NCBI GenBank assembly: GCA_965116515.1
Contig: OZ220705.1
Location: 3,888,331-3,952,330, forward strand
Origin: Alphaproteobacteria bacterium
GTDB lineage: Bacteria > Pseudomonadota > Alphaproteobacteria > SP197
Length of the DNA: 64,000 bases
Direction: 5' to 3'
A model generated the notes under the pieces. It had not been told where the DNA came from. It was given only the letters and a program-made list of their open reading frames with translations, and did not search any database. The position numbers and the translations under genes were made by a program. Positions 19,834-40,907 of this stretch are shown one piece after another. Position 1 is the first letter of the stretch. Each line of letters opens with the position of its first letter.

Positions 19834-19853
19834 CAGCACATCTGCACTGACGA

Positions 19854-23040: not shown

Positions 23041-26000
23041 ATGACGGATCCGGACAGGCCGGAAGGCCGCAAACAGGGAGTGTCCGCCGGCAGCGAGGCC
23101 ATGGCGATTGTAGGCATGGCCTGCCGTTTCCCCGGCGCAGACGACCTCTTCGCCTTCTGGCGCATGCTGGAAGAGGGGAAAAGCGGCGTGATCGAAGGGG
23201 TTCCCGGGTCCGGCGTTGGTCGCATCGGTGAACTGTTCGCTGAAGGCGAGGGGCGGGCCCCGGCCTGCAGGTTCGGCGCCTACCTCGACGAACTCGACCG
23301 GTTCGACGCCGCCTTCTTTCGCATCTCGCCGGTGGAAGCGCAGTTTCTCGACCCCCAGCAGCGAATGATGCTGGAAACCTGCTGGCGCGCACTGGAGGAT
23401 GCCGGCATCGACCCCGACAACCTGAAGGGCAGCCGCACCGGCGTCTTTGCGGGGATCAGCAACAACGAGTATCGCGGGCTGATCCTGGAAAGAACCCGGC
23501 CTGACGAACCCGCCGCGAGCCTTTACTCCGTCACCGGCACCTCGTTCAACACCGCGATCGGCCGGGTCTCTTTCGCTCTCGGCCTGGAGGGCCCGGCGCT
23601 CGCGCTCGATACGGCCTGCTCGTCCTCCCTGGTCGCGATACATCAGGCGGTGACCGCCCTGCAGCGAGACGAGGCGGACGTGGCACTGGCGGGCGGTGTG
23701 CATGCGATCCTCTCCGGTCGTCTGCTGGAGATGCGCGCCAATGCCGGCATGCTTTCGCCGGACGGCCGGTGCGCCACCTTCGATGCCGCTGCCAACGGCT
23801 ACGTGCGCGGTGAGGGCTGCGGGATCGTGGTGATCAAGCGTCTCTCCGATGCCGAGGCCGACGGCGACCGCATATGGGCGGTGATCCGGGGCACCGCGCT
23901 GAACCAGGATGGCGCCAGCCCGGGTCTGACCGTGCCAAGCGGTCCGGCCCAGGAAAAAGTCATGGAGTCCGCGCTGAAACAGGCTGGCCTCTCGCCTTCG
24001 GATGTGGACTACGTGGAGGCGCACGGGACAGGCACCGAGGTTGGCGACCCCATTGAAGCGCAGGCAACCGGCACGGCTTATGGCCACGGACGCGATCCCG
24101 AACGCCCGCTGCTGATCGGCTCGGTCAAGACCAATATCGGCCACCTTGAAGCGGCAGCCGGAGTCGCTGGGGTGATCAAGACGGTGCTGGCCATGAGGCG
24201 GGGCGTCATCCCCAGGCACCTCCATTTCCGGGATCCCAGTCCGGAAATCGACTGGGACCGTCTGCCCCTTCAGGTGACGGCAGAGCCCACCGAATGGCCA
24301 CGGTCTGCCGGTGCGCCGCCGCGCGCGGGGGTGAGCGGTTTCGGCTGGTCGGGGACCAACGCCCATGTGGTGCTGGAAGGGTATGGTGACCGGCACGACA
24401 CCGTCGCCGAAGATCCAGGGCGCTGGACCGACGGGCCGCCGGGGTGCATCGCCATCATTCAACCGTCCTCAATCGAAGGAGCGGCGCCGGTCGCGAAGAC
24501 GCTGGCCTCGCGCGGGTCGCGAATCCTGCCTCTCTCGGGCAGATCGAACGAAGCCCTGAGGGAACTCGCGGGATCGTACCTGTCCTGGCTCGATGAAGGC
24601 ACCCGCGCCGACAGTGCGGAAGCGCTCGCCGACATGGCCTGGACGGCCGCCGTCGGACGCAGTCATTTCGAGTGCCGGTCGGCAGTGGTGTTCCATGACG
24701 CCGGATCCCTGCGCGCCGCCCTGCAAGACCTCCGGGAAGCAGGCGGCACGCGGGTGCCGGCGGCGGCGAGGAAGGTGGCGTTCGCCTATACCGGACAGGC
24801 CAGCCAATGGCCTGGCATGGGCGAAGCGCTCTACGCAAGCGAGCCGGCGGTGCGCGCCGTGCTCGACCGCTGCGACGCGATCCTCGCCAAGGAACGGGAT
24901 GCGTCACTGCTGGACGTGATGTTCGGCCGACCGGGAGCCGCGGGTGACCTCGACGAGCCCCGGTGGAAACAGCCGGCGATCTATGCCCTTGAATGCGCGC
25001 TCACCGCGCTGTGGGACACTCTCGGCGTACGGCCGAATGTCGTGGTCGGACACAGTCTTGGCGAGATCGCGGCGGCGCAGGCTGCGGGCGTGTTCAGTCT
25101 GGAAGAAGGACTGCGCTTCGCCGCAGCCCGGGGCGGGCTGATCGGGGCGCTTCCCGGCGACGGCGCGATGGCCGCGGTCTTTGCGCCCGCTCCGCGTGTC
25201 GCCGAGGCACTGGACGAACACAATGCGGCTTCGGACGGCATTGGCCTTTGTATCGCGGTGGACAACGGCGCCCAGCAGGTGATCAGCGGTCCGGCGGTGG
25301 AGATCGACGCGATCCTGGGACGCCTGGAAGGTCAGGACATCCGGGCCGTGAAACTGCGCAGGAGCCCGGCCTACCACAGCGCGATGATCGACCCGGCCCT
25401 GGACGACCTGGAAGGCGCATTGGCCGGAACCGCGTTCGCTCCGCCTTCGATCCCGTTCGTCAGCAATCTGACCGGCCGCGCGCTGGAGGCCGGTGTCGCG
25501 CCGGACGCGTCCTATTGGCGGCGTCAGGTGCGCGAGCCGGTGGCCTTCCGTGCGTGCATCGAGACCCTGGCGGAATTTGGCGTGGACGCGATCATCGAGA
25601 TCGGTCCCCATGCCGTGTTGGGCCCGATGGCAACGATGGCATGGCCGGAATCCGCAGCCGAACCTCCTGTCGTGCTCTCAAGCCTGCGGCGGCCGGGCAA
25701 GGATGAGGAGCCGCCGCCGGCGGGTTCGGGCGGCGGCTTCATGGAGGCGGTTGCCGGCGCCTACGATGCGGGCCTGGCGCTCGACTTTCCGGGACTGTTC
25801 ACGGGCGAAACGCGCTGCCGCATCGCCCTGCCCGGCTATGCCTTCCAGCGAGAACGCTACTGGGTCGAGGGAACCAGGCGGCGGTCTCAGACCGGCCACC
25901 CCTTGCTGGGAACACGCCACGAGTCCGCGAGCGGCGAGGTCGCCTTCGACACCGAGGTCTTTCCCTCGGACCCGACGTGGCTCAACGACCATCGGGTGTT

Positions 26001-29000
26001 CGGCCGTCTGATTGCGCCCGGCGCGCTCTACGGCGCGATGGCCGCCACCAGCATCCGCGGGGATGGCGGAGGGGAAGCTGCGGTCGAGGACTTTCAGATA
26101 CAGAACGCCCTGGTCTTTCCCGAAGACGACGCGGAGGAGAGATCGAACGACAGGGGCCGGCGGATGCAGGTCCTGCTGGACGACGACGACCACGGTTCCC
26201 GCCGGATCCGCATTCTCAGCAGGGGCGACAGCGAGGACACGTGGACACTGCATGCAGAGGGCCGCATCCCGACAGACTCCTCAGGTTCGACGCGCCCACC
26301 ATCGCGCCTCGATGTCGAGGGAATGAAGGCCGGCCTCTTGCCGGTCGACCTCGCCGCTTACTACCGCTCCAAGGCGGCTGTCGGAATCGATCTCGGTCCC
26401 TCCTTCCGCACGCTGCAGGCGCTGTGGGCCCACGCCGGTGAAGCGGTCGCGGACGTGGTGCTCCCCGTCGAGCGAGAAGGTGATGCGCTCGACGTGCATC
26501 CGCTCGTGCTCGACGGCTGCTTCCAGGCCGTCGGCGCTGCGCGCAACGCCGGCAGCGACGGCGAGGACGTCACCTACCTCCCCTTCGCCTGGGAGCGACT
26601 GTGGCTGGCGGGCAGTCTGCCGGGTCGGCTGGTTTGTCATGTGAAGATGAGGGAAATTCCGCCGGGTCCGCAAGCGGATGCCGATGACTATGAGCCCGAG
26701 GTTCGGGCCGCCGACTTGTGGCTCTATGATCCGGACGGCGTACTGGTCGGCGAACTGGCCGGCTTTACGGTCAAACGCGCGACACGGGCAGCGTTGCTGG
26801 CTTCCGTGGAAGGAATTGACGATCTCATCTACGAGATCGTCTGGCGGGACAGCTCACTTGCACCCGGCATGTTGCCTGCGGATTTCCTGACCGGGCCGCG
26901 GGACATTGCGGCCGACACCCAACTCTTCAGCAACTACCTGGCGAACGAGGATGTGGGTGCGCAAAGCCGGGCCGCGCTGCTTGCGGATCTGGAGCAGTTG
27001 GCGCGCGCCTACGCCCTCCAGACTCTGGACAGGATCGGCTGGCAACGCATCGCCGGCGAACGCGTGGAGTCCGAGGCGTTGCGGGAGCATCTGGAGGTCG
27101 GCGACCACCACCGGCGACTGTTCCGCCGCATGCTGGACATGCTGGCTCAGGACGGGGTTCTGGAGGACCAGGGCGACAGCTTCGTCGTCAACGTTTCCTC
27201 CGGGGCACCTCTCCCGGGGGGACTGGCGAGCGACCCGGATGCCGTGGCTGGCGACATGGCGGCGCGGTACGCGCATGGCACAACCGAAATCGGCCTGTTT
27301 CGACGAAGCGCCGATGCCCTGGCCGATGTCCTGCAGGGACGCATGGATCCGTTGACATTGCTGTTCAGCAGCGGCGAACCGACAGCGGCCGACCTCTATC
27401 TGAAGGCGCCGGTGGCCCGCGCCGCGAACCGGATGCTGGCGGACGCTACGGCGGCATTGCTGCGAGCCCTGCCGGAAGGGCGCACGCTGCGTATACTGGA
27501 GATCGGGGCCGGCACCGGCTCGGCCACCGCGGCCATACTCCCGGAGTTTCCGGAAGGGCGCTACGAGTACACCTATACGGACATCTCGGCCGGCTTCTTC
27601 GCGGAGGCGGAATCGCGCTTCGGCGGTGCCGAGGCATCGATCAACTACCGGGTGCTGGATATCGAGAAGGACCCGGTGGAACAGGACTTCGACCGGCACG
27701 GCTACGACCTCGTGATCGCTTCCAATGTGCTGCACGCGACACGATATCTGAACGAGACGCTGGCGCACTGCCTCAAGGTCCTCGCCCCGTCGGGCCAGCT
27801 TGTCGCGCTGGAGAACCTGCGTGGCCAGGGATGGCTCGACCTGACCTTCGGGCAACTCGACGGCTGGTGGCGATTTGCCGACACGTATCGCCCACACCAT
27901 GCCCTCGCCACTCCGGCGGTGTGGCGCCAGGCATTGGGTGACGCCGGCTTCGGGGACATCGCGATCCTTGGCTTCGACGAGTCCGACCCGAACGCCAATC
28001 CGGACCGGGGGGTGATCCTTGCCCGGGGTCCGGCGGACGTGAGCGAGACGCCGGGTATCTGGGTCCTGGCCGCCGACCGCGGTGGCGTGGCGGCGGATCT
28101 CGCGGCGGATCTCGCGGCACACAACCAGACGGTGGTGCTTGCCGGACCGCAAGCGCCCCCCGGCGAACCAACGGAGGCCGCGGGCGTCGTCAAGACTCTC
28201 GTGGAGGCGGAGCGACGCGAGTCGTGGACATCCCTGCTCGAAGACCTGCCGGGCGACCTTGCAGGTGTCGTTCATCTTGCCGGGCTGGACGGCCATGGCG
28301 CGCAGGCGACGACCGCGGAACTGGCCGAGGACACCCGCCATGCGGCGGCGAGCGCGCTGGCACTGACCCAGGCGCTGGTGGACAGCGATCTGGCCCTGTC
28401 GAAGGGTCTCTGGTTCCTGACACGGGGCGCGCAGATCCTGGAGCGCGAGCGTGGCGGACAACTGACCGGCGCCGCTCTGTGGGGCTTCGGCAAGGTGGCG
28501 GCACGGGAAGCGCCCCAGCTGCAACCGAGAATGCTGGATCTCGATCCCGACGATGCGGTCCTGCCATCCGGCCTGGCGGACGAGTTCCTCCATCCCGATG
28601 CGGAAACACACATCGCCCGTCGATTCGGCCGCCGCCTTGGCGCGCGGCTGGTCCGCGCAGAAGCGGTCGCGGACCGGCTGATCCTGCCCGAGGAGCCCGG
28701 TTGGGAACTGAAGCCCGATGCCGGCGGCTCGCTCGACTCGATCGGGATCATGCAGGTGCCGCCGCTCAGGCTCGAACCCGGAGAGGTCCGCGCAGCGGTC
28801 GACGCCTTCGGGCTCAATTTCCGCGACGTTTTCATCGCCATCGGCGTCGTCGACGACTTCATGGGCGGGGAATTCTGCGGCCGCGTCCTCGAAGTCGGAG
28901 AGGGTGTTACCGGCGTCTCCGTGGGAGACCGCGTCGTCGGACTGACGTTCCGCAACTACGGCTCCGAGACCGTGACTCTGGAAAAGATGATCGTGCCCGC

Positions 29001-32000
29001 ACCACCGGGCTTCTCGGTCAGCGAGCTTGCGACATTTCCGACGGCGTTTGTTTCAGCCGCGCTTTCGTTCGAACTCTCGGGGCTGAAGGCGGGCGATCGC
29101 GTGCTCATCCACGCCGGGGCAGGCGGGGTAGGCCTTGCGGCCATCCAGTTGGCGCAGGCGGCGGGCGCGGAGGTCTTCGCCACGGCGAGTGCGCGCAAGC
29201 GGGACCATCTCCGATCGCTGGGCGTGACTCATGTGTTCGACAGCCGCACGACGGCCTTCGGCCAGGATATCCTGGAGGTGACAGACGGCGCCGGCGTCGA
29301 CATGGTGCTGAACAGCCTGACCGGCGAGGGCTTCATCGAGACCAGCCTGTCATGCCTCGCCCGAGGCGGGCGCTTCGTCGAAATGGGCCGGGTCGGCATC
29401 CTGAGCCACGACGAGATGGCGGCTGCGCGTCCGGACGTGTCCTATGCCATCCTCATGATCGACGCTCTCAAGGAGGACGAACCCGCACGCGCCGGTGACA
29501 TCCTGCGCGGCGTGATGGCGCGGCTTGCCGCCGGAGAGTTGACCCCGCTGCTCCACGCGCGATGGCCCGTGGCCGAAGTGGGAGCTGCGATGAAGTGCAT
29601 GCAGGGCGCCCGGCACATCGGCAAGATCGTCTTCACCAACTCGCCGCTCGCCAGGGGAGCCCTGCGGGGTGACCGGAGCTATCTCGTCACCGGTGGACTT
29701 GGCGGCATCGGCTGCGCGGTGGCGGAATGGCTGGCGGACCGCGGCGCCGGTTCCATCGTGCTCAACGGCCGACGGTCTCCCGACCCAGACGTCGAGCGGG
29801 TGATCGAGGCACTCCGCAAGAGGGGAGCCGAGGTGCGGGTGGAAATAGCCGATATGACCGATCCGCCCGCGATGGACGCCATGATGGCGCGGATCGACGA
29901 GGACCTGCCGCCACTCGCGGGCGTGATCCACAGCGTCGGTGTCCTTTCGGACGCCGCGATCGGCAATCAGAGCTGGGAGAACTTCGAAACGGTGCTCTGG
30001 CCCAAGATTCTGGGAGCATGGCATCTGCACAGGGCGACCGAAAATCGCGATCTCGACATGTTCGTTCTCTTCTCGAGTGTCGCGGGCGTTCTTGGTAATC
30101 CGGGCCAGGCCAACCATGCGGCGGCGAATGCGTTCCTCGACCAGCTCGCCGCGCACCGTCGCTCCCTCGGGCTTGCCGGCCAGGTCATTGCCTGGGGCGC
30201 CTGGTCGGAGATCGGGGAGGCTGAGGAACAGCGGGAGCGGATGTCCCGGCGCTCCGCGTCGGGCGGGCTCGAGTGGATCGTTCCGCAACAGGGCATGAGG
30301 GCCTTCGACCGGCTGGTGCGCGAGGACGCCACGGCGTCCGTGGTGCTCGCGCGTGACTGGACGGCGTTTGGAGAATCGCTCGAGAGCCGTCCGCCCCTGC
30401 TGGAGGACCTGTTGTCAGACGGTGCCGACGACGGCGCCGATGATTCCCTGGCCGACGATCTGTTCACCCGCCTGCAGGATGCGCCCGCGGCAATGCGCGA
30501 AGACGTGATGGCGTCGTTTATCCAGGGAGAAATCAAGGCTGTACTCAGGCTTCCTAGACCGCCGGCGCCCACGGTCGGGTTTTTCGACCTGGGCATGGAT
30601 TCCCTGATGGCGGTGGAGTTCCGCAATCGGCTCAACCGCGCCTTCGCAGGCGCTTACACGGCGTCCAATACGGTGGTGTTCGACTACCCCGACATCGCCG
30701 CACTCTCCGCCTTTCTCGCGGATGAGCTTGCCGGAGTCGTGGGCGCCGACGTGCCCGCCGCGCGAACCGTGCCGGCAGCCGTGCGCGATCACGACAACAC
30801 TTCGGACGGCATCGCCATTGTGGGCATGGCCTGCCGATTCCCGGGAGCACCAGATCTGCCGGCTTTCTGGCGTCACCTTGATTCCGGCTCGAGTGCCGTC
30901 ACCGGGGAGCGTCCCGAGACAGGCCCCTGGAGTGGCTACATCGACCATCTGCCCCCGCAATACGCGGAATTCGGCAACGCAGGCTTCATCGACGGGATCG
31001 ATCAGTTCGATGCCCGCTTCTTCGGTATCTCGCCGATCGAGGCACGGCTGGTCGATCCACAGCAACGGATGCTGCTGGAAACGACCTGGCAGGCCCTGGA
31101 GGACGCGGGGATCGACCCCGACCGGCTCAAGGGCAGTCGCACCGGGGTCTATGCCGGCATAGCGAGCAGCGAATACCGCGACCTGATGAGGAACGAGGAT
31201 TACGGTATCGGCTATCTCAGCACCGCTGCGAGCATGGCGGTTGGCCGGCTTTCGTTCCGCTTCGGTCTTGGCGGGCCCGCGATGCCCGTGGAACTCAACT
31301 GCGCTTCATCGCTGGTTGCGGTGCACCATGCCGTCACGGACCTGCGCCTGGGCACGGTGCACATGGCCTTGGCCGGCGGTGCGAGCGCCGTCCTGTCTGC
31401 GCCGGTGACGCGCGAAATGGCTGATCTGGGCCTTCTGTCGCGCGGCGGTGCATGCCGGACCTTCGATGCGAAAGCGGACGGGTTTGTGCGGGGCGAGGGC
31501 TGTGGCGTGATCATCCTCAAGCGTCTTGCAGACGCGGAGGCCGACGGCGATCGGATCTGGGCGGTGATCCGCGGCTCTGCGGTCAACCAGAACGGCGCGG
31601 CCGCCGGTGCAACGGTGCCGAACGGCCCGGCTCAGGAACGGGTGATCGAGCAGGCGCTCTCGCAGGCCGGCTTCGCCCCCGGCGAAGTGGACTACCTGGA
31701 GGCACACGGCGCCGGTTCGGCGTTTGGCGATCCCATCGAGGTACAGGCAGCGGCGGCGGTGTATGGAAGGGAGAGAGCCAGCGACCGCCCGCTACTGATC
31801 GGTTCGGTAAAGACCAGTATCGGACATCTCGAGTCGGCGGCCGGCATCGCCGGACTGATGAAGACCGTGCTGGCCATGAACCGGGGCGCCATTCCCCGCC
31901 ACCTGAACTTCCGGACCCCGAATCCGCTCATCGAGTGGGACCGGTTGCCAGTGCGGGTGACGGAGGAAGCGACCGCCTGGCCATGCGATACCGCCCGACC

Positions 32001-33252
32001 ACCGAGGGCCGGGGTGAGCGCCTTCGGAATCTCGGGAGTCAACGCCCATGTCGTGTTGGAGGGATATGCTGCCGAGGGCCCTGTGCCCGTGGGGCCGGCG
32101 CTGCCGACCGCAGTCTCCCTGCCGAAACCGATTGCCGCTCAACCCCAGGAGGAGATTGCGCTCGCAGCGCGCACCATGCGTCTCTTGCCGCTTTCGGCCA
32201 AGTCGGATGACGCGCTGAGAGCGCTCGCCGAGCGGTACCTTGGATGGCTTGACGAGCGGTCCGACGAACTGGCGCCGGGAGAAGCTGCATCCGGTTCCCT
32301 GCTGTCCGACATGGCATGGACGGCCGGAGTGGGAAGGAGCCATCTTGCACATCGCGCCGGCCTCGTGTTCCGTGACGCCGCGGCGCTGCGGGCGGGTTTG
32401 AAGGCTCTGGTGGCATCCCGGGACCTCCCGGAACCCGGGACACCTGCAAAGGTTGCATTCGCCTACCCGGAGGAGTTGGGCAACTGGACTGCCCTGGCGG
32501 GGACACTCTACGAGATCGAACCGGTGGTCCGGGCGGTACTCGACCGCTGTGAGGCCGCCATGCACGACCGGTGGAACGAGTCGCTGCTCGAAAGACTGTT
32601 CCGCCGAAGCGAACCGGTTGATCCGGCATGGGCGCGGCCCATGGTCTGTTCCCTGGCATGTGCGCTCACGGCGCTCTGGTCGAGCATCGGCATCCGGCCA
32701 GGCGTGGCGATCGGCTGGGGAGCCGGCGAACTGGCGGCAGCCCAGGCCGCCGGCGTCTTCGATCTGGAGCAGGGGCTCACGCTTGCGACGGAACCGGACG
32801 ATGCACCCGAAGTCATCATGCCATCCCCGCCATCGATCAGCCTCGTCAGCAGCGCCACGGGGCGGCTGGTCGATCCAGGCGACATGCCGGACGGAGCTCG
32901 CTGGAGTCGTCAGACGCACGTCCGGGCGGCCCCGGAGCGTTGCGCTGGCACTTTGGCGGAACTGGACGTCGACGCGATGATCGAGATCGGCCCTGGAACC
33001 GAATTCGGATCGATGCTCGCCCGTGCCTCGACGGCGGCTGCCGACAGCGGCGTGGCGGTTTCGATCGAGACCCTGCGGCGATCAGGCGGAGACGAGGACG
33101 GCGGCTTCATCGCTGCGGTCGCCGCAGCCTACGAGGCGGGCCTTGCGGTGTCCTTCGAGGGTCTCTTTGCGGGCGAGGCCAGGCGCCGGATCGCGCTTCC
33201 CGGCTACCCGTTCCAGCGCCGAAGCCACTGGCTCGTGTCGCGCGAACGGTAG
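23041..33252 (+). CDS. Type I polyketide synthase, single 3403-aa ORF. Domain order: KS-AT-DH-cMT-(KR structural subdomain)-ER-KR-ACP-KS-AT0 (degenerate, truncated AT). No TE or R domain.
   Basis: KS1 DTACSSSLVA, EAHGTGT, NIGHLE. AT1 GHSLGE. DH HPLLGTRHESASGEVAFDTEVFPSDPTWLNDHRV. cMT LEIGAGTG. ER HAGAGGVG. KR TGGLGGIG. ACP LGMDSLMAVE. KS2 ELNCASSLVA, EAHGAGS, SIGHLE. Second AT-like region has GWGAGE in place of GHSLGE. Confidence 0.9.
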   Translation: MTDPDRPEGRKQGVSAGSEAMAIVGMACRFPGADDLFAFWRMLEEGKSGVIEGVPGSGVGRIGELFAEGEGRAPACRFGAYLDELDRFDAAFFRISPVEAQFLDPQQRMMLETCWRALEDAGIDPDNLKGSRTGVFAGISNNEYRGLILERTRPDEPAASLYSVTGTSFNTAIGRVSFALGLEGPALALDTACSSSLVAIHQAVTALQRDEADVALAGGVHAILSGRLLEMRANAGMLSPDGRCATFDAAANGYVRGEGCGIVVIKRLSDAEADGDRIWAVIRGTALNQDGASPGLTVPSGPAQEKVMESALKQAGLSPSDVDYVEAHGTGTEVGDPIEAQATGTAYGHGRDPERPLLIGSVKTNIGHLEAAAGVAGVIKTVLAMRRGVIPRHLHFRDPSPEIDWDRLPLQVTAEPTEWPRSAGAPPRAGVSGFGWSGTNAHVVLEGYGDRHDTVAEDPGRWTDGPPGCIAIIQPSSIEGAAPVAKTLASRGSRILPLSGRSNEALRELAGSYLSWLDEGTRADSAEALADMAWTAAVGRSHFECRSAVVFHDAGSLRAALQDLREAGGTRVPAAARKVAFAYTGQASQWPGMGEALYASEPAVRAVLDRCDAILAKERDASLLDVMFGRPGAAGDLDEPRWKQPAIYALECALTALWDTLGVRPNVVVGHSLGEIAAAQAAGVFSLEEGLRFAAARGGLIGALPGDGAMAAVFAPAPRVAEALDEHNAASDGIGLCIAVDNGAQQVISGPAVEIDAILGRLEGQDIRAVKLRRSPAYHSAMIDPALDDLEGALAGTAFAPPSIPFVSNLTGRALEAGVAPDASYWRRQVREPVAFRACIETLAEFGVDAIIEIGPHAVLGPMATMAWPESAAEPPVVLSSLRRPGKDEEPPPAGSGGGFMEAVAGAYDAGLALDFPGLFTGETRCRIALPGYAFQRERYWVEGTRRRSQTGHPLLGTRHESASGEVAFDTEVFPSDPTWLNDHRVFGRLIAPGALYGAMAATSIRGDGGGEAAVEDFQIQNALVFPEDDAEERSNDRGRRMQVLLDDDDHGSRRIRILSRGDSEDTWTLHAEGRIPTDSSGSTRPPSRLDVEGMKAGLLPVDLAAYYRSKAAVGIDLGPSFRTLQALWAHAGEAVADVVLPVEREGDALDVHPLVLDGCFQAVGAARNAGSDGEDVTYLPFAWERLWLAGSLPGRLVCHVKMREIPPGPQADADDYEPEVRAADLWLYDPDGVLVGELAGFTVKRATRAALLASVEGIDDLIYEIVWRDSSLAPGMLPADFLTGPRDIAADTQLFSNYLANEDVGAQSRAALLADLEQLARAYALQTLDRIGWQRIAGERVESEALREHLEVGDHHRRLFRRMLDMLAQDGVLEDQGDSFVVNVSSGAPLPGGLASDPDAVAGDMAARYAHGTTEIGLFRRSADALADVLQGRMDPLTLLFSSGEPTAADLYLKAPVARAANRMLADATAALLRALPEGRTLRILEIGAGTGSATAAILPEFPEGRYEYTYTDISAGFFAEAESRFGGAEASINYRVLDIEKDPVEQDFDRHGYDLVIASNVLHATRYLNETLAHCLKVLAPSGQLVALENLRGQGWLDLTFGQLDGWWRFADTYRPHHALATPAVWRQALGDAGFGDIAILGFDESDPNANPDRGVILARGPADVSETPGIWVLAADRGGVAADLAADLAAHNQTVVLAGPQAPPGEPTEAAGVVKTLVEAERRESWTSLLEDLPGDLAGVVHLAGLDGHGAQATTAELAEDTRHAAASALALTQALVDSDLALSKGLWFLTRGAQILERERGGQLTGAALWGFGKVAAREAPQLQPRMLDLDPDDAVLPSGLADEFLHPDAETHIARRFGRRLGARLVRAEAVADRLILPEEPGWELKPDAGGSLDSIGIMQVPPLRLEPGEVRAAVDAFGLNFRDVFIAIGVVDDFMGGEFCGRVLEVGEGVTGVSVGDRVVGLTFRNYGSETVTLEKMIVPAPPGFSVSELATFPTAFVSAALSFELSGLKAGDRVLIHAGAGGVGLAAIQLAQAAGAEVFATASARKRDHLRSLGVTHVFDSRTTAFGQDILEVTDGAGVDMVLNSLTGEGFIETSLSCLARGGRFVEMGRVGILSHDEMAAARPDVSYAILMIDALKEDEPARAGDILRGVMARLAAGELTPLLHARWPVAEVGAAMKCMQGARHIGKIVFTNSPLARGALRGDRSYLVTGGLGGIGCAVAEWLADRGAGSIVLNGRRSPDPDVERVIEALRKRGAEVRVEIADMTDPPAMDAMMARIDEDLPPLAGVIHSVGVLSDAAIGNQSWENFETVLWPKILGAWHLHRATENRDLDMFVLFSSVAGVLGNPGQANHAAANAFLDQLAAHRRSLGLAGQVIAWGAWSEIGEAEEQRERMSRRSASGGLEWIVPQQGMRAFDRLVREDATASVVLARDWTAFGESLESRPPLLEDLLSDGADDGADDSLADDLFTRLQDAPAAMREDVMASFIQGEIKAVLRLPRPPAPTVGFFDLGMDSLMAVEFRNRLNRAFAGAYTASNTVVFDYPDIAALSAFLADELAGVVGADVPAARTVPAAVRDHDNTSDGIAIVGMACRFPGAPDLPAFWRHLDSGSSAVTGERPETGPWSGYIDHLPPQYAEFGNAGFIDGIDQFDARFFGISPIEARLVDPQQRMLLETTWQALEDAGIDPDRLKGSRTGVYAGIASSEYRDLMRNEDYGIGYLSTAASMAVGRLSFRFGLGGPAMPVELNCASSLVAVHHAVTDLRLGTVHMALAGGASAVLSAPVTREMADLGLLSRGGACRTFDAKADGFVRGEGCGVIILKRLADAEADGDRIWAVIRGSAVNQNGAAAGATVPNGPAQERVIEQALSQAGFAPGEVDYLEAHGAGSAFGDPIEVQAAAAVYGRERASDRPLLIGSVKTSIGHLESAAGIAGLMKTVLAMNRGAIPRHLNFRTPNPLIEWDRLPVRVTEEATAWPCDTARPPRAGVSAFGISGVNAHVVLEGYAAEGPVPVGPALPTAVSLPKPIAAQPQEEIALAARTMRLLPLSAKSDDALRALAERYLGWLDERSDELAPGEAASGSLLSDMAWTAGVGRSHLAHRAGLVFRDAAALRAGLKALVASRDLPEPGTPAKVAFAYPEELGNWTALAGTLYEIEPVVRAVLDRCEAAMHDRWNESLLERLFRRSEPVDPAWARPMVCSLACALTALWSSIGIRPGVAIGWGAGELAAAQAAGVFDLEQGLTLATEPDDAPEVIMPSPPSISLVSSATGRLVDPGDMPDGARWSRQTHVRAAPERCAGTLAELDVDAMIEIGPGTEFGSMLARASTAAADSGVAVSIETLRRSGGDEDGGFIAAVAAAYEAGLAVSFEGLFAGEARRRIALPGYPFQRRSHWLVSRER
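23095..24384 (+). other. PKS domain KS1 (ketosynthase), active-site Cys codon at 23617..23619
   Basis: AIVGMACRFPGA ... DTACSSSLVA ... EAHGTGT ... NIGHLEAAAG ... NAHVVLEGY. Confidence 0.85.
24772..25870 (+). other. PKS domain AT1 (acyltransferase) plus post-AT linker. Active Ser codon at 25054..25056.
   Basis: FAYTGQASQWPGMG ... GHSLGEIAAAQAAG ... RRSPAYHSAMI (unusual specificity motif) ... RIALPGYAFQRERYWV. Confidence 0.8.
25897..26790 (+). other. PKS domain DH (dehydratase)
   Basis: HPLLG...P catalytic-His motif, then LDGCFQ and the hot-dog fold region. Confidence 0.7.
26880..27990 (+). other. PKS domain cMT (C-methyltransferase). Motif I LEIGAGTG at 27496..27519.
   Basis: LRILEIGAGTGSATAAILPEF ... 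YDLVIASNVLHAT. Confidence 0.75.
28050..28620 (+). other. PKS KR N-terminal structural (pseudo-KR) subdomain
   Basis: Rossmann-like region GIWVLAADRGGVAADLAADLAAH ... GVVHLAGLD preceding the ER, as in fully reducing modules. Confidence 0.5.
28680..29640 (+). other. PKS domain ER (enoylreductase, MDR family)
   Basis: LEPGEVRAAVDAFGLNFRDV ... DRVLIHAGAGGVGLAAIQLAQAAGAEVFATAS. Confidence 0.8.
29677..30250 (+). other. PKS domain KR (ketoreductase catalytic subdomain) with His in place of the catalytic Tyr (NHAAAN; His codon CAT at 30115..30117)
   Basis: SYLVTGGLGGIG ... FSSVAGVLGNPGQANHAAANAFLDQLA. Confidence 0.75.
30460..30700 (+). other. PKS domain ACP. Phosphopantetheine Ser codon at 30601..30603.
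   Basis: FFDLGMDSLMAVEFRNRLN. Confidence 0.8.
30808..32067 (+). other. PKS domain KS2 (second ketosynthase). Cys codon at 31300..31302.
   Basis: GIAIVGMACRFPGAP ... VELNCASSLVA ... EAHGAGSAFGDP ... SIGHLESAAG ... NAHVVLEGY. Confidence 0.8.
32449..33252 (+). other. PKS AT0: degenerate, shortened acyltransferase-like remnant (GWGAGE; Ala codon 32722..32724 where the catalytic Ser is expected). It is followed directly by the stop codon.
   Basis: KVAFAYPEELGNWT in place of FAYTGQASQWPGMG. IGWGAGELAAAQAAG. Only about 160 aa lie between this motif and the RRIALPGYPFQRRSHWL linker-like end, compared with about 260 aa in AT1. Confidence 0.7.
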
Positions 33253-34199
33253 GCGGGACCACGAGCGCGGGTTTCGTCTTCCGGATCCCCGTGCGCGGCC
33301 TTTCGGAAGCCAAGTCCTGTCAGGTACTCGCGCACCATCGCCGCGCATTGCGCGGGTTGTTCCAGTTGCAGAAAGTGTGACGCCTGTGGCACGAAGTCGT
33401 AGTCGACAGCCGACGCATGACTGAGGTCGAAGGTGGGGAGATACGCGTATGGCAGCGTCGGATCGGCGCCGATGACCTTGGTCGGGCAGATCAGAATCGA
33501 CAGATCCAGCAACGGCGAAAAGCTCCTCACGTACTCCGCGATCTGGGCTTCGTAGTCGCGAGGACAGCGCAGTTCGTACCCGTTTCCGTCGGCGCTCTCG
33601 CGAAGAGTCGACCGTGCCATGAGATCGCGCACGCCCGGTACAACCCGGGCAAATCCGGGAACGATGGCCAGGACTTCCGCATACTGCTCTTCGGACTTGA
33701 ACCGCTCCGTCCGGCGCCGGGTCATTGCGGCCGTCCTCTCCGCCGCCTCGATGAACTCCAGTTCGCTTGAGGCGGGTTTGCAGAGCGGCGGATCGAACAG
33801 GACCAGCGCGGAATAGGCGTCATTGAATGACAGCAGGGCGACAAGCGTCGACAGTGAATGAAACACTCCGACCGTCGTCTTTTCGCCGTACTCCCGGACG
33901 ATGGCATCGAGAATGATGTCATGATCGAAAATCAGTGTCGGAATGTTGTGGTCCCGCTGGGAACCGACCTCGTTCCAGCCGTGGTTCCTGAGGTCATAGA
34001 CCATCAGGTCGAAGTCATCGGCGAGCAACGACCAGAACGGATAGTAAAGGTCGGCCGCGAGACCGTTACCGTGGGTCAGAACAAGCCGTGGACCGGACGG
34101 GTTGCCGTATCGCCGCACGGTGGTCACGGTGCTCGTGTCGATCCGGACGTCGAACGTGGCAAGAGGCTCGGGTATCGTCCACATCGTTGCTTCCGTCAT
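33204..34199 (-). CDS. Alpha/beta-hydrolase-fold protein (candidate thioesterase/hydrolase). Convergent with the PKS gene and overlapping its 3' end by 49 bp.
   Basis: 332 aa from MTEATMWTIPEPL. Fold-typical HGNGLAADLYYPFW and a nucleophile-elbow-like VGVFHSLSTL that is non-canonical. Confidence 0.55.
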   Translation of the reverse strand: MTEATMWTIPEPLATFDVRIDTSTVTTVRRYGNPSGPRLVLTHGNGLAADLYYPFWSLLADDFDLMVYDLRNHGWNEVGSQRDHNIPTLIFDHDIILDAIVREYGEKTTVGVFHSLSTLVALLSFNDAYSALVLFDPPLCKPASSELEFIEAAERTAAMTRRRTERFKSEEQYAEVLAIVPGFARVVPGVRDLMARSTLRESADGNGYELRCPRDYEAQIAEYVRSFSPLLDLSILICPTKVIGADPTLPYAYLPTFDLSHASAVDYDFVPQASHFLQLEQPAQCAAMVREYLTGLGFRKAAHGDPEDETRARGPAYRSRDTSQWLRRWNG

Positions 34200-34707
34200 G
34201 ACGCTTGTGTCCGCTTTCCTCTCTATGCGGTGCCTGCAACGGGACACGGCATGACTTCAATGGTCGCCCACGTCACCGCAACGTTCACGGAATATTCGGA
34301 CGAATTGGTTTCCCCTGAATACAGGAACCTGGGGACGGTTGTCCGCTGTGTGGTGGTTCCCCGCGTGTCCGAAATCCGGGGAAACTTCCTTTCATCGGTC
34401 TTGAGATCAATGTTTCATAGTTTGCGTCCTGATACCACACACGAGACAGCCATCCCTTCCAGCCGTCCCGTGCTTGCCGGCCTCGGCGGAGACATCGCAC
34501 TCCACCGACGGGCCAAGCCAGGCAGCGAACGAACGACCATGATCGGTGGCGCATGGACCGGGCCAGGCTGCGGCCCCTCTGCATCTTCGGCAAACGCAGC
34601 GGGTTCGTTGTCGGGCAGACAACGTCACCGACACCGTGGTTGCCCTGGACCCGGGTATGGTAGAACGATCTCCTGGCACTCCGGGGGTCCGGGAGAGGGA
34701 TGACACC

Positions 34708-36042
34708 ATGGACGACCGACTCACGCAGTCACTTCAGGATCTCGACCGTCATCACCACCTGCATCCCTTTACCGATGCCCGCGTCTTCAATGACGCCGGC
34801 GTACGCGTCATCACCGGAGCCGAGGGCGTTTACCTGACCACCTCGCGCGGTCACCGCGTACTCGATGGCATGGCGGGCCTGTGGTGCGTGAACATTGGCT
34901 ACGGGCGCCCGGAACTTGCCCGTGCAGCCCATGACCAACTCCTCTCGCTGCCCTACTACAACACCTTCTTCCAGACATCGACCGTGCCCACCACCCGCCT
35001 CGCCGGACGCCTCGCGGAGATTGCTCCGGAGGGCTTCAACCATGTCTTCTTCGCCAATTCCGGATCGGAAGCAAACGACACGGCGGCGAAGATGGTGCGC
35101 TGGTACTGGCACACGAAGGGGAAGCCATCCCGCAAGACCATCATTTCCCGCCGCCATGCCTACCATGGTGTCACCATGGCGGCGGCGAGCATGTGCGGGC
35201 TCGAGGAGATGCACCCCCAGTTCGACCTACCCCTTCCCGGATTCATCCACGCGGACTGTCCATACTGGTACCGCTACGGCCGCGGGATGGACCCGGAAGA
35301 CTTCGGTATCGCCGCGGCCCGCTCGGTCGAACGGCTGATTACCGAGAACGGCCCGGAGAACATCGGCGCGTTCATCGGCGAACCGGTGATGGGTGCCGGT
35401 GGGGTCATCGTGCCTCCGGAAAGCTATTGGCCGGAAATCATGAGAATTTGCCGCCGATACGACATCCTCGTCATAGCCGATGAGGTGATCTGCGGGTTTG
35501 GCCGGACGGGCGAATGGTTCGGCAGCAACACCTTCGGCATCGAACCCGACATCATGACCATCGCCAAGGGACTCTCGTCAGGCTATCAGCCCATCAGCGG
35601 CGTACTCGTGCACGACCGGATTGCCGGCGTGATGGTCGAAGAAGGTGGGGAGTTTCAACATGGATTCACGTGGTCGGGCCATCCTGTTGCCGCCGCCGTG
35701 GCGCTGGAGAACATCGACATTCTCCGGCGCGAGGCCATCATCGAGACATGCCGGAACGTGACCGCGCCGCACCTGCAGCAGCGCCTGCGGGATCTTGTCG
35801 ATCGTCCTCTCGTCGGCGAGGTGCGTGGCGTGGGCATGATGGCAGCGGTGGAACTCCGCGGCAATAAGGGCACCGCCGCCATGGTTCGCGAAGAGGCATG
35901 GAAACGTGGCCTTCTCGTCCGCGCGACCGGAGAATCGCTCATCCTGTCACCGCCCCTCATCATCACGACGGACGAGGTCGACATGCTGGCAGATACACTC
36001 CTTGCGACACTCGACGCCGTCGAATCACAGCCCGCCGCATGA
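34708..36042 (+). CDS. Class III (omega) aminotransferase, PLP-dependent (putrescine/beta-alanine-pyruvate aminotransferase-like)
   Basis: GAEGVYLTTSRGHRVLDGMAGLWCVNIGYGRPEL, FANSGSEANDTAAKM, ADEVICGFGRTGEWFG, TIAKGLSSGYQP (PLP Lys). ATG at 34708 with a GGGAGAGGGA RBS. Confidence 0.85.
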   Translation: MDDRLTQSLQDLDRHHHLHPFTDARVFNDAGVRVITGAEGVYLTTSRGHRVLDGMAGLWCVNIGYGRPELARAAHDQLLSLPYYNTFFQTSTVPTTRLAGRLAEIAPEGFNHVFFANSGSEANDTAAKMVRWYWHTKGKPSRKTIISRRHAYHGVTMAAASMCGLEEMHPQFDLPLPGFIHADCPYWYRYGRGMDPEDFGIAAARSVERLITENGPENIGAFIGEPVMGAGGVIVPPESYWPEIMRICRRYDILVIADEVICGFGRTGEWFGSNTFGIEPDIMTIAKGLSSGYQPISGVLVHDRIAGVMVEEGGEFQHGFTWSGHPVAAAVALENIDILRREAIIETCRNVTAPHLQQRLRDLVDRPLVGEVRGVGMMAAVELRGNKGTAAMVREEAWKRGLLVRATGESLILSPPLIITTDEVDMLADTLLATLDAVESQPAA

Positions 36043-37106: not shown

Positions 37107-38660
37107 TCAGGCTTGCGTTCGCTTTACCATGGCGCGGAGGTCCGAGAGGGCCCACGCACCCAGGTAGCGGGCTGAAACGGCATAGGTGACGAAACCGAGG
37201 GCCACCAGAACCACGAGATAAGCAGCAATGTGATCGCCGCTGGCAGGCCACCAGTGGTAGCGTGTGTAGTGGAGTGCTGCCAGCGCGGCCGCCATCACCG
37301 CTGTGGCCGCGACCATGCGGGGCAGGCGCCGCTTGAGGCGCTGATCGGCAATGAGGTGGTTCCGGCGGACCAGGACCACATAGAGGATGATGGCGTTGAC
37401 CCACGCCGCCGTGGCGGTCGCGAGGGCAATGCCGACATGACCCAGAGACCAGACCAGGGCCAGCATGACGGCAATGTTGCTCACGAGACCGACCACGGCA
37501 ATCTTCAGCACGGTCCCGGGGTCCTTGCGCGCAAAGAAGGCAGGTGCCAGCACCTTGATCAGCACATAGGCAGGAAGCCCGGCGGCGAATGCCCTGAGAG
37601 CGGCGGCACTCGCCTCGCTGTCGACCGCCTTGAAGGCGCCGCGCTCGAAGAGCACGGCGATCACCGGATGCGCGATGACCATGAGAGCGGCCGCCGCGGG
37701 CAGGGTGAGAACCATCACAAGTTCGATGGCGCGGCTCTGACTTTCGTTGGCCCCGGTCTCGTCACGAGCCTCGATCTGCCTCGACAACAGAGGCAGCAGT
37801 GCACTGCCCACGGCAATGCCGACAACTCCCAGCGGCAACTGATTGACCCGGTCTGCATAGTAGAGCCACGAAATGGCCCCGGTGGAAAGAAACGAGGCGA
37901 CCCACAGATCGATGAGAAGATTGACCTGCACGACGCCGGCACCAAGGGCCGCGGGAACGAAGCGGCGGAGCAGTTCCCTCACACCTGCCGTCAGGCGCGG
38001 CAGGAGAAGGCGAGGCATCATGCCGGCACGCCTGACTGCATGGAGGACAAGTGCCAGCTGCAGGATTCCGCCGCACGTCACGCCCCAGGAGACGGCCCTG
38101 CCTGCGTGCACATCGTCGAGCACATGAATCAGGAGCGCTGCGCCGATGAGACTGAGATTGAGCAGGATGGGCGCGGCGGCATAGGCGGCAAATCGCCCGG
38201 TCGAGTTGAGCATGCCGCCGAAGAGCGCCACCAGTGAAATCAGGAGGATGTAGGGAAAGGTGATGCGAGTGAGATCGACGGCCAGGTCGAATTTCAGGGG
38301 TTCGTCGACGAACCCGGGTGCCAGCACCGTGACCACCCACGGCATCGCCACCTCGAAGACTGCGACAAGCACGGCAAGAACCACGGCGAGAACCGCCAGG
38401 ACCTCGTCGGCCAGCCGCCTTGCGGCCACTTCGCCCTCACCCTCGAGGCTGCGGGCGAAGAGAGGGATGAACACCGTGTTGAAGGCGCCCTCAGCCAGAA
38501 GGCGGCGGAAGAAATTGGGGAGCTTGAAGGCGACAAGGAAGGCGTCCGCCACCCAGCCCGTCCCCAGGGCTGCGGCAAACAGCACGTCCCGCACAAATCC
38601 GAGAACCCTGCTCGCGGCTGTCAGTCCGCTGACCGTCAGGAAAGCCCTGGAGAGATTCAT
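37107..38660 (-). CDS. murJ: Lipid II flippase MurJ (MviN)
   Basis: MNLSRAFLTVSGLTAASRVLGFVRDVLFAAALGTGWVADAFLVAFKLPNFFRRLLAEGAFNTVFIPLFA, a near-canonical MurJ N-terminus. 517 aa polytopic. Confidence 0.85.
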   Translation of the reverse strand: MNLSRAFLTVSGLTAASRVLGFVRDVLFAAALGTGWVADAFLVAFKLPNFFRRLLAEGAFNTVFIPLFARSLEGEGEVAARRLADEVLAVLAVVLAVLVAVFEVAMPWVVTVLAPGFVDEPLKFDLAVDLTRITFPYILLISLVALFGGMLNSTGRFAAYAAAPILLNLSLIGAALLIHVLDDVHAGRAVSWGVTCGGILQLALVLHAVRRAGMMPRLLLPRLTAGVRELLRRFVPAALGAGVVQVNLLIDLWVASFLSTGAISWLYYADRVNQLPLGVVGIAVGSALLPLLSRQIEARDETGANESQSRAIELVMVLTLPAAAALMVIAHPVIAVLFERGAFKAVDSEASAAALRAFAAGLPAYVLIKVLAPAFFARKDPGTVLKIAVVGLVSNIAVMLALVWSLGHVGIALATATAAWVNAIILYVVLVRRNHLIADQRLKRRLPRMVAATAVMAAALAALHYTRYHWWPASGDHIAAYLVVLVALGFVTYAVSARYLGAWALSDLRAMVKRTQA

Positions 38661-38814
38661 TCCCCTCTCACAGCGTCGCCGGAAAGCCCGTGATCACGCT
38701 TCATCCCACAAAACGGAACATTCATGAACAGTCACGCCGCCCGTCTGCGGACGACAATGATCGGATATGATGGCGAACCGGTGTCCTGCCCGTCGGCAGC
38801 CGGGTAACTGGCCG

Positions 38815-39642
38815 TCAGGGCGTGATGCCGCGAAGCCGTTCGCTTCGGCGGCGCAGGAGTTCCATCACGATCATCAATCCGATCGATGTCAAGATGAGCA
38901 TGGTGGCGACCGCCATGATGGTCGGCGAAAGAAGCTCACGGATGCCCGACCACATGCGCCTTGGGAGCGTGTGCTCCTCGGTGCTGGCCAGGAAGATCGC
39001 GATGACCAGTTCATCCCACGACGTGATGAAGGCGAAGAGCGCACCGGCCACGACGCCTGGCAGAATGAGGGGAAGCGTGATCTTGAAGAAGACGCGCAAG
39101 GGGTCGCCACCCAGGCTCGCACCGGCCCGGATGAGATTGTAGTCGAATCCGGCCAGGGTGGCCGAAACGGTGATGACGACGAAGGGCACACCGATGGTCG
39201 CGTGGGCGAAGACGAGGCCGGCAAGCGTCCCGGTCAGTCCGACCTTGGCATAGAAATAGAACATGCCGGCCGCCGTGATGACGATCGGCACGATGATGGG
39301 AGAGATGAGGACTGCAAGGATCGTGGACTTTCCCGCATACTCGGCACGATTGAGACCCAGCGCTGCCAGGGTTCCCAGCACCGTCGCCACCAGGGTCGCG
39401 AAGATACCGACGATGATGCTGTTCTGGAGGCCCAGCAACCACTGCGGGCTCGAGAAGAAATCGCCGTACCAGCGCAGCGAAAAGCCTGGCATGGGGTACG
39501 TGAAATAGGGCTCGGAATTGAAGCTGAGCGGCATGATCACGATGATCGGAATGATCAGGAAGGCGAAGATCAGGCAGCAGATCACGCGGAACGTGACATA
39601 CCAGATCCTGTCGAGCGTCGTGGCGTAGGACGGCATCGCCAT
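38815..39642 (-). CDS. ABC transporter permease, PotC/PotI-like (polyamine)
   Basis: 275 aa, six TM helices, EAA-loop region GASLGGDPLRVFFKITLPLILPG. Confidence 0.8.
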   Translation of the reverse strand: MAMPSYATTLDRIWYVTFRVICCLIFAFLIIPIIVIMPLSFNSEPYFTYPMPGFSLRWYGDFFSSPQWLLGLQNSIIVGIFATLVATVLGTLAALGLNRAEYAGKSTILAVLISPIIVPIVITAAGMFYFYAKVGLTGTLAGLVFAHATIGVPFVVITVSATLAGFDYNLIRAGASLGGDPLRVFFKITLPLILPGVVAGALFAFITSWDELVIAIFLASTEEHTLPRRMWSGIRELLSPTIMAVATMLILTSIGLMIVMELLRRRSERLRGITP

Positions 39643-39644
39643 GG

Positions 39645-40907
39645 TCAGTTCACCTTGAGCCGGTCAACACCGACAAAACGGTTGTAGATGAAGAACATGA
39701 CAAGAGTGAGCAGGAGCAACACGCAGGACAATGCCGCCCCGAGCCCCCAGTTGGCTGTTTGCCCCATGTTCTGGACGATCCAGTAGCTGACCATCTGATC
39801 GCCCGGTCCGCCAACCAGCGCCGGCGTGATGTAGTACCCCAGTGAGAGAATGAAGACGAGCAGTGTTCCCGCCGCCACGCCGGGCATGCACTGCGGAAAG
39901 TAGACCTTCAGGAAGGCCTTCCAGCCCGGCGCACCAAGGGACGCCGCGGCCCGCATGTGCCATGGGTTGATGGTCTTCATCACGCTGTACATGGGCAGCA
40001 CCATGAACGGCAGGAGGATGTGCACCATCGCCACGTAGACACCGAACCGGTTGCGGATCAGTTCCTGGGGTTCGTTCCACAGGCCCAGCCACAACGCCAG
40101 GTCATTGATCAGCCCCTCGTTCTGCAGCAACACGAGCCAGGAGGTTGTCCGCACCAGCAGTGATGTCCAGAACGGCAGAAGAACGAGAATCAACAGCAGG
40201 TTGCTGATGCGTGTCGGCAATGTCGCCAGAAGATAGGCAATCGGCAGACCGAGCAGGAAACACAGCAGGGTGACGGCAAAGCTGATCTCGATGGTCCGCA
40301 GAAGAACGTCCACGTAGATCGCCCTGTCCGGGGAGACGCCGACAATCTCGCGTTCCTGGTCGCGCTGCAGGTCGAGTGACCACAGGAGGTAGTAATCGGT
40401 GTAGTAGTCAGAGGCGTTCTTGATGGCATACCAGTAGGCAGGGTCACCCCAGTCCTTGTCGATCTTGATGAAGCCATCGTGGATCTGGTCCACGGGAAGC
40501 AGCGCCAACTGTTCGGACTGGCGCGCTGTCTTCTTCACCATCGACTTGAAGCCGCTGATGTCATAGTTGAGCCGCTTGGCCGCGCGGCCGAACTGTCCGC
40601 GTTCGGCAACGGACAGTTCCTCGGCAAAGGTGGCCATGGCTTCCGGCGGAGGAAATCCCTCGCCGTCCCACTCCCGGAACACCTCCGCTGTACGCGGGAA
40701 CCCCGACGTGAGATCCGGATCCTCGACGGAAAGTGCCAGCAGCGAAATGATCGGCAGGATGAACCCGACAACGAGAAACAGGAAGAGCGGTGCAACGAGG
40801 GCGATTGCCCAGACCTTGCGCATGCGCTCGGCGCGCCTGAGCTTGATCTTCAGCGGCACGCCATCGGCTGTGCGCATCACGTCATGGCTGCCTGTCGTTG
40901 CCACCAT
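39645..40907 (-). CDS. ABC transporter permease, PotB/PotH-like with an enlarged periplasmic loop
   Basis: Permease core ...AASLGAPGWKAFLKVYFPQCMPGVAAGTLLVF. I chose the ATG at 40907, preceded by a GGAGA RBS. The listed ORF begins at a GTG at 40925. Confidence 0.75.
   Translation of the reverse strand: MVATTGSHDVMRTADGVPLKIKLRRAERMRKVWAIALVAPLFLFLVVGFILPIISLLALSVEDPDLTSGFPRTAEVFREWDGEGFPPPEAMATFAEELSVAERGQFGRAAKRLNYDISGFKSMVKKTARQSEQLALLPVDQIHDGFIKIDKDWGDPAYWYAIKNASDYYTDYYLLWSLDLQRDQEREIVGVSPDRAIYVDVLLRTIEISFAVTLLCFLLGLPIAYLLATLPTRISNLLLILVLLPFWTSLLVRTTSWLVLLQNEGLINDLALWLGLWNEPQELIRNRFGVYVAMVHILLPFMVLPMYSVMKTINPWHMRAAASLGAPGWKAFLKVYFPQCMPGVAAGTLLVFILSLGYYITPALVGGPGDQMVSYWIVQNMGQTANWGLGAALSCVLLLLTLVMFFIYNRFVGVDRLKVN

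Follow-up and report, generated by a model that had tools for sequence, protein, structure and literature searches.

We analyzed a stretch of 64,000 nucleotides (hereafter the window) from contig OZ220705.1 of the Alphaproteobacteria bacterium assembly GCA_965116515.1 (positions 3,888,331 to 3,952,330). It carries, in a single open reading frame (ORF) on the plus strand (23041..33252), a type I polyketide synthase (PKS) of 3403 amino acids, whose C-terminal end consists of a second ketosynthase domain (KS2) followed by a degenerate acyltransferase (AT) region, AT0. BlastP comparison with SupA (ABE03915.1, clone pAPKS18) gave 3329 identical residues out of 3403 (98%), without gaps and over equal length. 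By exact look-up, both proteins belong to one 90% protein cluster, which has ten members besides the window protein: seven of 3403 amino acids, ABE03915.1 among them, one of 3402 and two fragments. The stand-alone acyl carrier protein (ACP) encoded at 19603..19833 is letter-for-letter SupB (ABE03911.1, UniRef100_A4U8Q9; exact look-up), and the permease of the window is 98% identical to SupE from clone pAPKS18 (UniRef A4U8R2), listed as a permease under ABE03914 (PMC3908369). The entries for SupA, SupB and SupE all bear the source name “Aplysina aerophoba bacterial symbiont”. Because of this 98-100% identity to the deposited Sup proteins, we identify the PKS as SupA and the locus as the sup (“sponge symbiont ubiquitous PKS”) cluster from an alphaproteobacterium that lives in symbiosis with the sponge Aplysina aerophoba; the 74 amino-acid substitutions relative to ABE03915.1 assign the window protein to a different strain.

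PMC3908369 credits Fieseler et al. 2007 (Appl Environ Microbiol 73:2144) with the sup cluster. Both gene and length are thus already known and have been public since the pAPKS18 deposit, SupA having been first deposited in 2007. An initial annotation, made from the DNA sequence alone, had pointed out a PKS ending in KS-AT0; the gene, being SupA deposited from clone pAPKS18, is not new. In nucleotide sequence, the window matches the sister strain contig L080, which encodes P0122, the cluster representative named SupE, at 97.8% identity over 14.4 kb, and a 4.1-Mb assembly at 99.7%. The gene order ACP, phosphopantetheinyl transferase (PPTase), permease, PKS is the same in the window and in L080. 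The features that define the Sup system are all present: identity to SupA, SupB and SupE as partners, a single module resembling fatty acid synthase (FAS) with a C-methyltransferase (cMT), and occurrence in sponge symbionts of many phyla.

The domain order of SupA is KS1-AT1-DH-cMT-ER-KR-ACP1-KS2-AT0, where DH, ER and KR denote dehydratase, enoylreductase and ketoreductase. Pfam recognized two ketoacyl-synthase N/C pairs, two Acyl_transf_1 domains, one PS-DH, a methyltransferase, an ADH_zinc_N-type ER, a KR and one PP-binding domain, all far above threshold. The models KAsynt_C_assoc, CurL-like_PKS_C and RhiE-like_linker each matched two stretches of the protein. The positions of all features are given in Table 1.

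Table 1. Genes of the sup locus and domains of SupA, with their positions in the window.
Feature	Position	Strand	Basis and key residues
supB, free-standing ACP, 76 aa	19603..19833	+	Pfam PP-binding; predicted phosphopantetheine Ser35 (GVSSVD), codon 19705..19707
Sfp/HetI-type PPTase	20293..21045 (longest ORF; likely start ATG 20341, 234 aa)	+	Pfam ACPS, AASDHPPT_N
supE, NCS2 / xanthine-uracil-type permease	21118..22950 (likely start ATG 21199, 583 aa)	+	Pfam Xan_ur_permease
supA, type I PKS, 3403 aa	23041..33252	+	Pfam; SupA identity
Module 1, residues 20-2565	23098..30735	+	Pfam
KS1	within module 1	+	Cys193, His328, His368
AT1	within module 1	+	GHSLGE Ser672, Arg697, His779
DH	within module 1	+	HRVFGRLIAP
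cMT	within module 1	+	ILEIGAGTG
KR	within module 1	+	GGLGGIG
ACP1	within module 1	+	GMDSL, Ser2521 = 30601..30603
KS2, residues 2590-3015	30808..32085	+	Pfam ketoacyl-synt N and C
KS2-to-AT0 linker domain, residues 3016-3134	32086..32442	+	Pfam; model shows alpha/beta linker
AT0, AT large-subdomain remnant, residues 3135-3345	32443..33075	+	Alignment to AT1
Post-AT linker, residues 3346-3400, including RRIALPGYPFQRRSHWL at 3382-3398	33076..33240	+	Sequence
Alpha/beta hydrolase	33204..34247 (likely start Met17 at 34199)	-	Pfam Abhydrolase_6

The terminal KS2-AT0 didomain of SupA

KS2 begins about 25 residues downstream of ACP1. Its catalytic residues are Cys2754 in ELNCASS (residues 2751-2757, codon TGC at 31300..31302), His2889 in EAHGAGS (31705..31707) and His2929 in SIGHLE (31825..31827), and the Lys of KTSIGHLE is present. 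The motif positions given in the initial annotation (KS2 start at residue 2590 = 30808; NCASS, EAHGAGS, SIGHLE and GWGAGE) proved exact. In 57 full-length sequences (56 related loci plus the window), the Cys is conserved in all, the first His in 56 and the second His in all, and the Lys of KTNIGH is kept. Among 114 homologues of the terminal didomain, the Cys-His-His triad is intact in 109. The five others (P0058, P0079, P0095, P0120 and P0056) have Asn or Gln in place of one catalytic His; they may be non-decarboxylating variants, sequencing errors or pseudogenes.

KS2 is about as conserved as KS1, with a mean pairwise identity of 0.65 against 0.68 across the 56 full-length genes. Comparison with the sister strain L080 revealed 21 synonymous and 4 non-synonymous changes in KS2, that is, a ratio of non-synonymous to synonymous substitution rates (dN/dS) of 0.06, against 0.08 for KS1. 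The initial annotation had described KS2 as catalytically competent in appearance, which agrees with both the triad (56/57 full-length relatives) and the low dN/dS. KS2 therefore looks like an active condensing domain. Within the window, KS2 and KS1 are 61.6% identical (58-62% overall). In the phylogeny of the family the two form separate, reciprocally monophyletic clades, which indicates that the duplicates are older than the radiation of the family and have both persisted in it. We interpret the terminal KS2-AT0 as an ancient internal duplicate of KS1-AT1 that has been retained since then.

AT0 has fared differently from AT1. In the pairwise alignment of the two domains, Ser672 of the AT1 motif GHSLGE faces Gly3227 (GGA, 32719..32721), within GWGAGE (residues 3225-3230, 32713..32730). 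The absence of the catalytic Ser had been noticed in the initial annotation and holds, but Ala3228 (GCC, 32722..32724), which it had placed at the nucleophile position, is off by one residue and aligns with the Leu of GHSLGE. Where AT1 has FAYTGQ, AT0 has FAYPEE at residue 3140 (FAYPEELGNW), and the GQxSQ loop is lost. The distance from FAY to the (C/R)RIALPGY motif is 345 amino acids in AT1 and 242 in AT0, so that the shortening by about 100 residues reported earlier, together with the loss of FAYTGQ, is borne out by a measured difference of 103. The deletion corresponds to AT1 residues ~696-797 and takes away the malonyl carboxylate-binding Arg and the whole small subdomain of ferredoxin-like fold, along with the catalytic His (His779 in AT1). 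These losses are also seen in an alignment with E. coli FabD.

The same decay is found throughout the family. None of the 114 terminal homologues has Ser at the nucleophile position of AT0 (100 Gly, 6 Asp, 4 Arg, 3 Asn and 1 gap), nor does any of the 57 full-length sequences; a Ser at this position had been named beforehand as the result that would speak against a dead AT, and the alignment did not yield one. The segment of the small subdomain measures 35-71 amino acids in the 114 AT0 homologues against 131-132 in real ATs. Since Ser, GQxSQ loop, Arg, small subdomain and His are all missing, AT0 is, as judged from its sequence, not capable of acyltransferase activity. Yet about 210 residues of the AT fold are kept, with 52% identity to AT1. 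Mean pairwise identity in the family is 0.61 for AT1, 0.59 for the N-terminal part of AT0, 0.34 for the remainder of AT0 and 0.59 for the post-AT0 linker, the last value being about equal to that of the post-AT1 linker.

An AlphaFold2 model of KS2-AT0 (35 sequences; mean pLDDT 73.5, pTM 0.71) was obtained with moderate confidence. It displays a thiolase-fold KS, an alpha/beta linker domain and a C-terminal linker that runs back toward the KS. The AT0 core in the model consists of a strand-elbow-helix at GWGAGE and one more helix, followed by a 16-residue loop in place of the small subdomain, in line with the truncation proposed from the sequence. The best fold matches in the Protein Data Bank (PDB) are complete cis-AT KS-AT didomains: CurL (4mz0), DEBS M5 (2hg4) and Lsd14, with TM scores of 0.69-0.76; trans-AT KS-LD structures do not rank among these best matches. 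We infer that AT0 is a structural remnant, a scaffold made up of the linker domain, the large-subdomain remnant and the post-AT linker, against which a cis-AT-type KS folds.

The best single PDB sequence match of KS2-AT0 is 7zma, annotated as a “putative polyketide synthase”, which we take to be a trans-AT bimodule. KSs of trans-AT systems that carry a linker subdomain (PksJ, 4na1; RhiE-type KS-LD) resemble the SupA didomain in lacking a working AT and in relying on an acceptor ACP loaded in trans. However, such KSs have the linker domain only, along with a discrete AT gene, whereas in SupA the post-AT linker and the greater part of the AT large subdomain are still present. Classification as a trans-AT-type KS-linker was rejected, as AT0 retains ~210 AT residues, the best fold matches are full cis-AT didomains and no discrete AT occurs among the conserved neighbours.

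The polypeptide ends shortly after AT0, its TAG stop (33250..33252) lying 3-5 residues past the end of the post-AT linker. No carrier, thioesterase (TE) or reductase (R) domain was found after AT0, either in the C-terminus of SupA or in the following 1 kb, which confirms the architecture first proposed. The supA gene and the convergent hydrolase ORF overlap by 49 nucleotides at their 3' ends (33204..33252), and with this overlap an undetected ACP or TE would not fit. Over its last ~40 residues, overlap included, the hydrolase ORF is not conserved in relatives.

Distribution of the didomain and its conserved neighbours

A homology search with KS2-AT0 returned more than 100 full-coverage matches with 50-70% identity, from metagenome-assembled genomes (MAGs) named Rhodospirillales, Gemmatimonadota, Latescibacteria, Nitrospira, Caldilineaceae, Acidobacteriota and Nitrospinae, a range that pointed to symbionts of sponges. 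The initial annotation had suggested a search for other proteins ending in KS-AT0, and these turned out to be the rule: 114 of the best 120 homologues end like SupA, nearly all of them 0-13 residues past the post-AT linker, and the other six are KS1-AT1-DH fragments. The word-indexed homology search gave only fragments of at most 1420 amino acids, and the full-length 3403-residue members of the same collection came from exact look-up; a search of this type seems to miss many long proteins.

Among species-representative genomes, a scan yielded 79 loci that we retained and examined, all from MAGs and from many phyla: Alphaproteobacteria, Latescibacterota, Chloroflexota, Acidobacteriota, Gemmatimonadota, Nitrospirales and Gammaproteobacteria, including “Ca. 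Porisulfidus ... lac_sponge”. The 567 stretches “encoding a relative” that the scan reported are not a family count, as its patterns and tblastn threshold also catch ordinary AT/post-AT regions. At 56 of the 79 loci, one open frame of ~3380-3620 amino acids ends at the AT0 tail. All module-1 catalytic and cofactor motifs that were checked are conserved in the 57 full-length sequences. Taken over these sequences, a terminal KS2-AT0 is constant in the family.

We then evaluated the gene environment of the 79 loci with tblastn. In 60 of them, a homologue of SupB is encoded no more than 10 kb from the PKS, and matches to the hydrolase were found in 59 (52-77% identity for full-length matches), to the permease in 40 and to the PPTase in 35. 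MurJ, a 181-residue ORF and the upstream sugar-metabolism genes of the window recurred at none of the 79 loci. At many loci (e.g., L003-L005, L011, L012 and L014), the ACP gene is co-directional with the PKS and starts within a few hundred nucleotides of its stop; there, the PKS stop is often followed by ACP, PPTase, hydrolase and permease in this order. When the downstream ORFs of the 79 loci were all clustered without supervision, only the hydrolase, ACP, permease and PPTase emerged as conserved, the other clusters being antisense artefacts. No second AT, loading enzyme or reductase was detected among the conserved neighbours, and AT1 is the only intact AT in the cluster. The specificity motif of AT1 (residues 774-780, 25360..25380) reads SPAYHS in the window, as it does in 22 of 57 relatives; the rest have xAFHS, of malonyl type.

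Locus L039 (Terriglobia MAG SB0661_bin_30) has three SupB-like ACP genes (~241-516, 14040-14267 and 14795-15067) around one supA. The hydrolase has invariant motifs (HG; G..HS with Ser131; LFDPP with Asp152; His291) that form a plausible Ser-Asp-His triad. Its relatives in the PDB are distant only. We regard this alpha/beta hydrolase as a probable releasing or editing thioesterase.

Possible roles of KS2-AT0 and SupB

In the literature, Sup enzymes are small, monomodular, sponge-specific PKSs and candidate makers of mid-chain-branched fatty acids. Sup PKS genes are reported to dominate sponge metagenomes, with >99% of KS amplicons in one study, and the sup KS clade is reported to be sponge-specific and to contain no MIBiG sequence. 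KS2-AT0 and SupB are the least conventional parts of this system. Both are conserved and KS2 is under strong purifying selection, so that any model of Sup chemistry must give them a role.

The reading that we favour, to which we give an even chance, is that KS2 and SupB form a split, non-reducing second module, with SupB as the missing carrier, loaded by AT1 (or FabD). Module 1 would build a saturated, alpha-methylated acyl chain on ACP1, in one or several passes. The chain would move from ACP1 to Cys2754 of KS2, which would condense it with a malonyl unit on SupB, loaded by AT1 or by the FabD of the cell. The extended chain, now on a free carrier, would be released by the conserved alpha/beta hydrolase or taken on by other enzymes. 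Two properties expected of a split module are at hand: a condensation-competent KS, as far as the Cys-His-His triad and Lys tell from sequence, and a dedicated discrete ACP encoded with it. The stand-alone carrier at 19603..19833 had been proposed early on as a trans partner of the terminal KS; its standing as a conserved partner, SupB, is established by its presence at 60 of 79 loci, and a trans interaction between KS2 and SupB is what we infer from this.

A more specific version, which we put forward tentatively, sees KS2-AT0 and SupB as a hand-over device, in which one unmethylated condensation moves the chain, methylated by module 1 at a programmed position, to a free carrier for the type II fatty-acid machinery or the hydrolase. 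If true, the hand-over would yield the mid-chain methyl-branched fatty acids typical of sponges, through a defined transfer from type I to type II, and the second KS and dead AT of the PKS that is most abundant in sponge microbiomes would have an explanation.

Several observations weigh against a split module. ACP1 could in principle serve KS2 alone. SupB is a divergent ACP, with GVSSVD instead of the usual DSL motif and a score of 25 bits against NCBIfam ACP cut-offs of 66-106, and in the window its gene lies 3.2 kb upstream of supA and does not adjoin KS2. No fusion of KS2-AT0 to an ACP, of the Rosetta-stone kind, was found in the 120 homologues and 79 loci. Retention of Cys-His-His is no proof of elongation, as CalA3 has the triad and only off-loads. 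In 4 of the 114 homologues the first His of KS2 is Asn or Gln, and in 1 of 114 the second His is Asn, as would suit a function in which decarboxylation is not always required. Finally, reviews call the Sup enzymes “monomodular” and leave the terminal didomain unmentioned.

A lesser possibility is a two-KS iterative synthase, in which KS2 would use ACP1 as both donor and acceptor, AT1 reloading ACP1 once the chain has moved to KS2. KS1 and KS2 would then divide the cycles between them (by chain length, or into methylated and unmethylated ones) and share one AT and one reductive loop, and SupB would be a starter carrier or the final acceptor. The position of ACP1 directly upstream of KS2, across a short linker, is favourable to this scheme; with a single active AT, redundancy would explain the decay of the second. 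It also fits the age of the two KS paralogues, both under strong constraint, and the full domain set of module 1, which resembles that of FAS and highly reducing (HR) PKSs and is typical of iterative enzymes. However, it leaves a strongly co-conserved orphan ACP without a role, and we know of no precedent in cis-AT PKSs for two full KS-AT-type condensing units on one ACP.

Doubtful, in our view, is an off-loading role in which KS2 would release or transfer the finished chain, to water, another nucleophile, SupB or the hydrolase, without forming a C-C bond. The model for it is CalA3 of calcimycin biosynthesis, an ACP-less KS-AT0-DH0-KR0 module whose KS, with Cys-His-His, releases the chain by amidation or hydrolysis (PMC10006239). 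Its AT0 has Gly for Ser and has lost His and Arg (PMC10006239). CalA3 (PDB 8i4y, 7wvz) thus offers a precedent for a triad-bearing KS with a dead AT and no carrier of its own, and its structures are among the fold matches of the KS2-AT0 model. Like CalA3, the SupA didomain lacks an ACP of its own, and its AT is inactivated at Ser, His and Arg; SupA also lacks a TE domain, and the few family members with Asn or Gln at the decarboxylation His would suit a transfer role. In contrast to SupA, CalA3 forms a protein of its own, retains both subdomains of the AT and releases by amidation, whereas the didomain of SupA follows ACP1 in one polypeptide, is without the small subdomain and stands alongside an orphan ACP and a hydrolase, with no conserved amine-supplying gene. 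The first His (56/57 full-length sequences, 109/114 homologues) and the Lys of KTNIGH are retained to a degree that exceeds what simple transfer needs, and a conserved hydrolase with an intact Ser-Asp-His is already there for release. The lack of a conserved gene for an amine or other acceptor points in the same direction, as weak evidence.

It is very improbable that KS2-AT0 is an inert relic of a former second module, kept as bulk only: AT0 has indeed decayed, its C-terminal part being 0.34 identical across the family, but KS2 is as conserved as KS1 (0.65 vs 0.68), with an intact triad and a dN/dS of 0.06, and the didomain is complete in 56/56 full-length genes from many phyla. A gene cut short by an assembly or sequencing error, with an ACP/TE segment missing, which the initial annotation had named as a ground for refutation, can practically be dismissed: no support for it was found, the cosmid-clone protein and six other cluster members from other assemblies have the same 3403 amino acids (one more has 3402), the 114 homologues and 56 loci share the end point, and a conserved, convergent gene fills the DNA downstream.

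Other known type I PKSs were also compared with SupA. SwfA, the second widespread mono-modular PKS/FAS found in sponge symbionts, is a small FAS-like type I PKS (KS-AT-DH-ER-KR-ACP) with a putative lipid-like product, but it has neither a cMT nor a terminal KS-AT0, and its partners are SwfB, a reductase/sulfotransferase, and SwfC, a radical SAM protein (PMC3908369). Mycobacterial Pks13 and the MAS-like iterative PKSs are builders of lipids, as SupA may be, and the fold matches of KS2-AT0 include structures of MAS and Pks13. The didomain gave partial matches to the NCBIfam models of Pks13 and Pks2, far below their cut-offs (504 vs 2100 bits for Pks13); on these scores, membership of SupA in the Pks13 family was rejected. 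Pks13 differs from SupA in combining an active AT with two ACPs and a TE.

Other features of the locus

The PPTase gave an NCBIfam HetI-like match below the curated cut-off and is called as a protein of 234 amino acids in L080 and L081. Between supB and the PPTase gene lies a gap of ~0.5 kb (19834..20340) with no convincing ORF; the same gap is seen in L080 and L081, and it could hold a promoter or a small unannotated element.

Directly after the sup cluster, a class III aminotransferase is encoded at 34546..36042, which by its place resembles a tailoring gene. Its sequence places it above the curated cut-off of a generic aminotransferase subfamily, and a match recurs at 1 of the 79 loci (tblastn). 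A role in converting a beta-keto to a beta-amino group, of iturin type, was rejected on these two grounds; the gene is probably unrelated to the sup cluster. Upstream, the window encodes a choline-sulfatase-like sulfatase (10630..12300) and a gamma-glutamyltranspeptidase (13550..15394), which are not conserved with sup loci. A positive AT skew of 0.23 at 38001..40000 coincides with two minus-strand genes for inner-membrane permeases of an ABC transporter and is ordinary.

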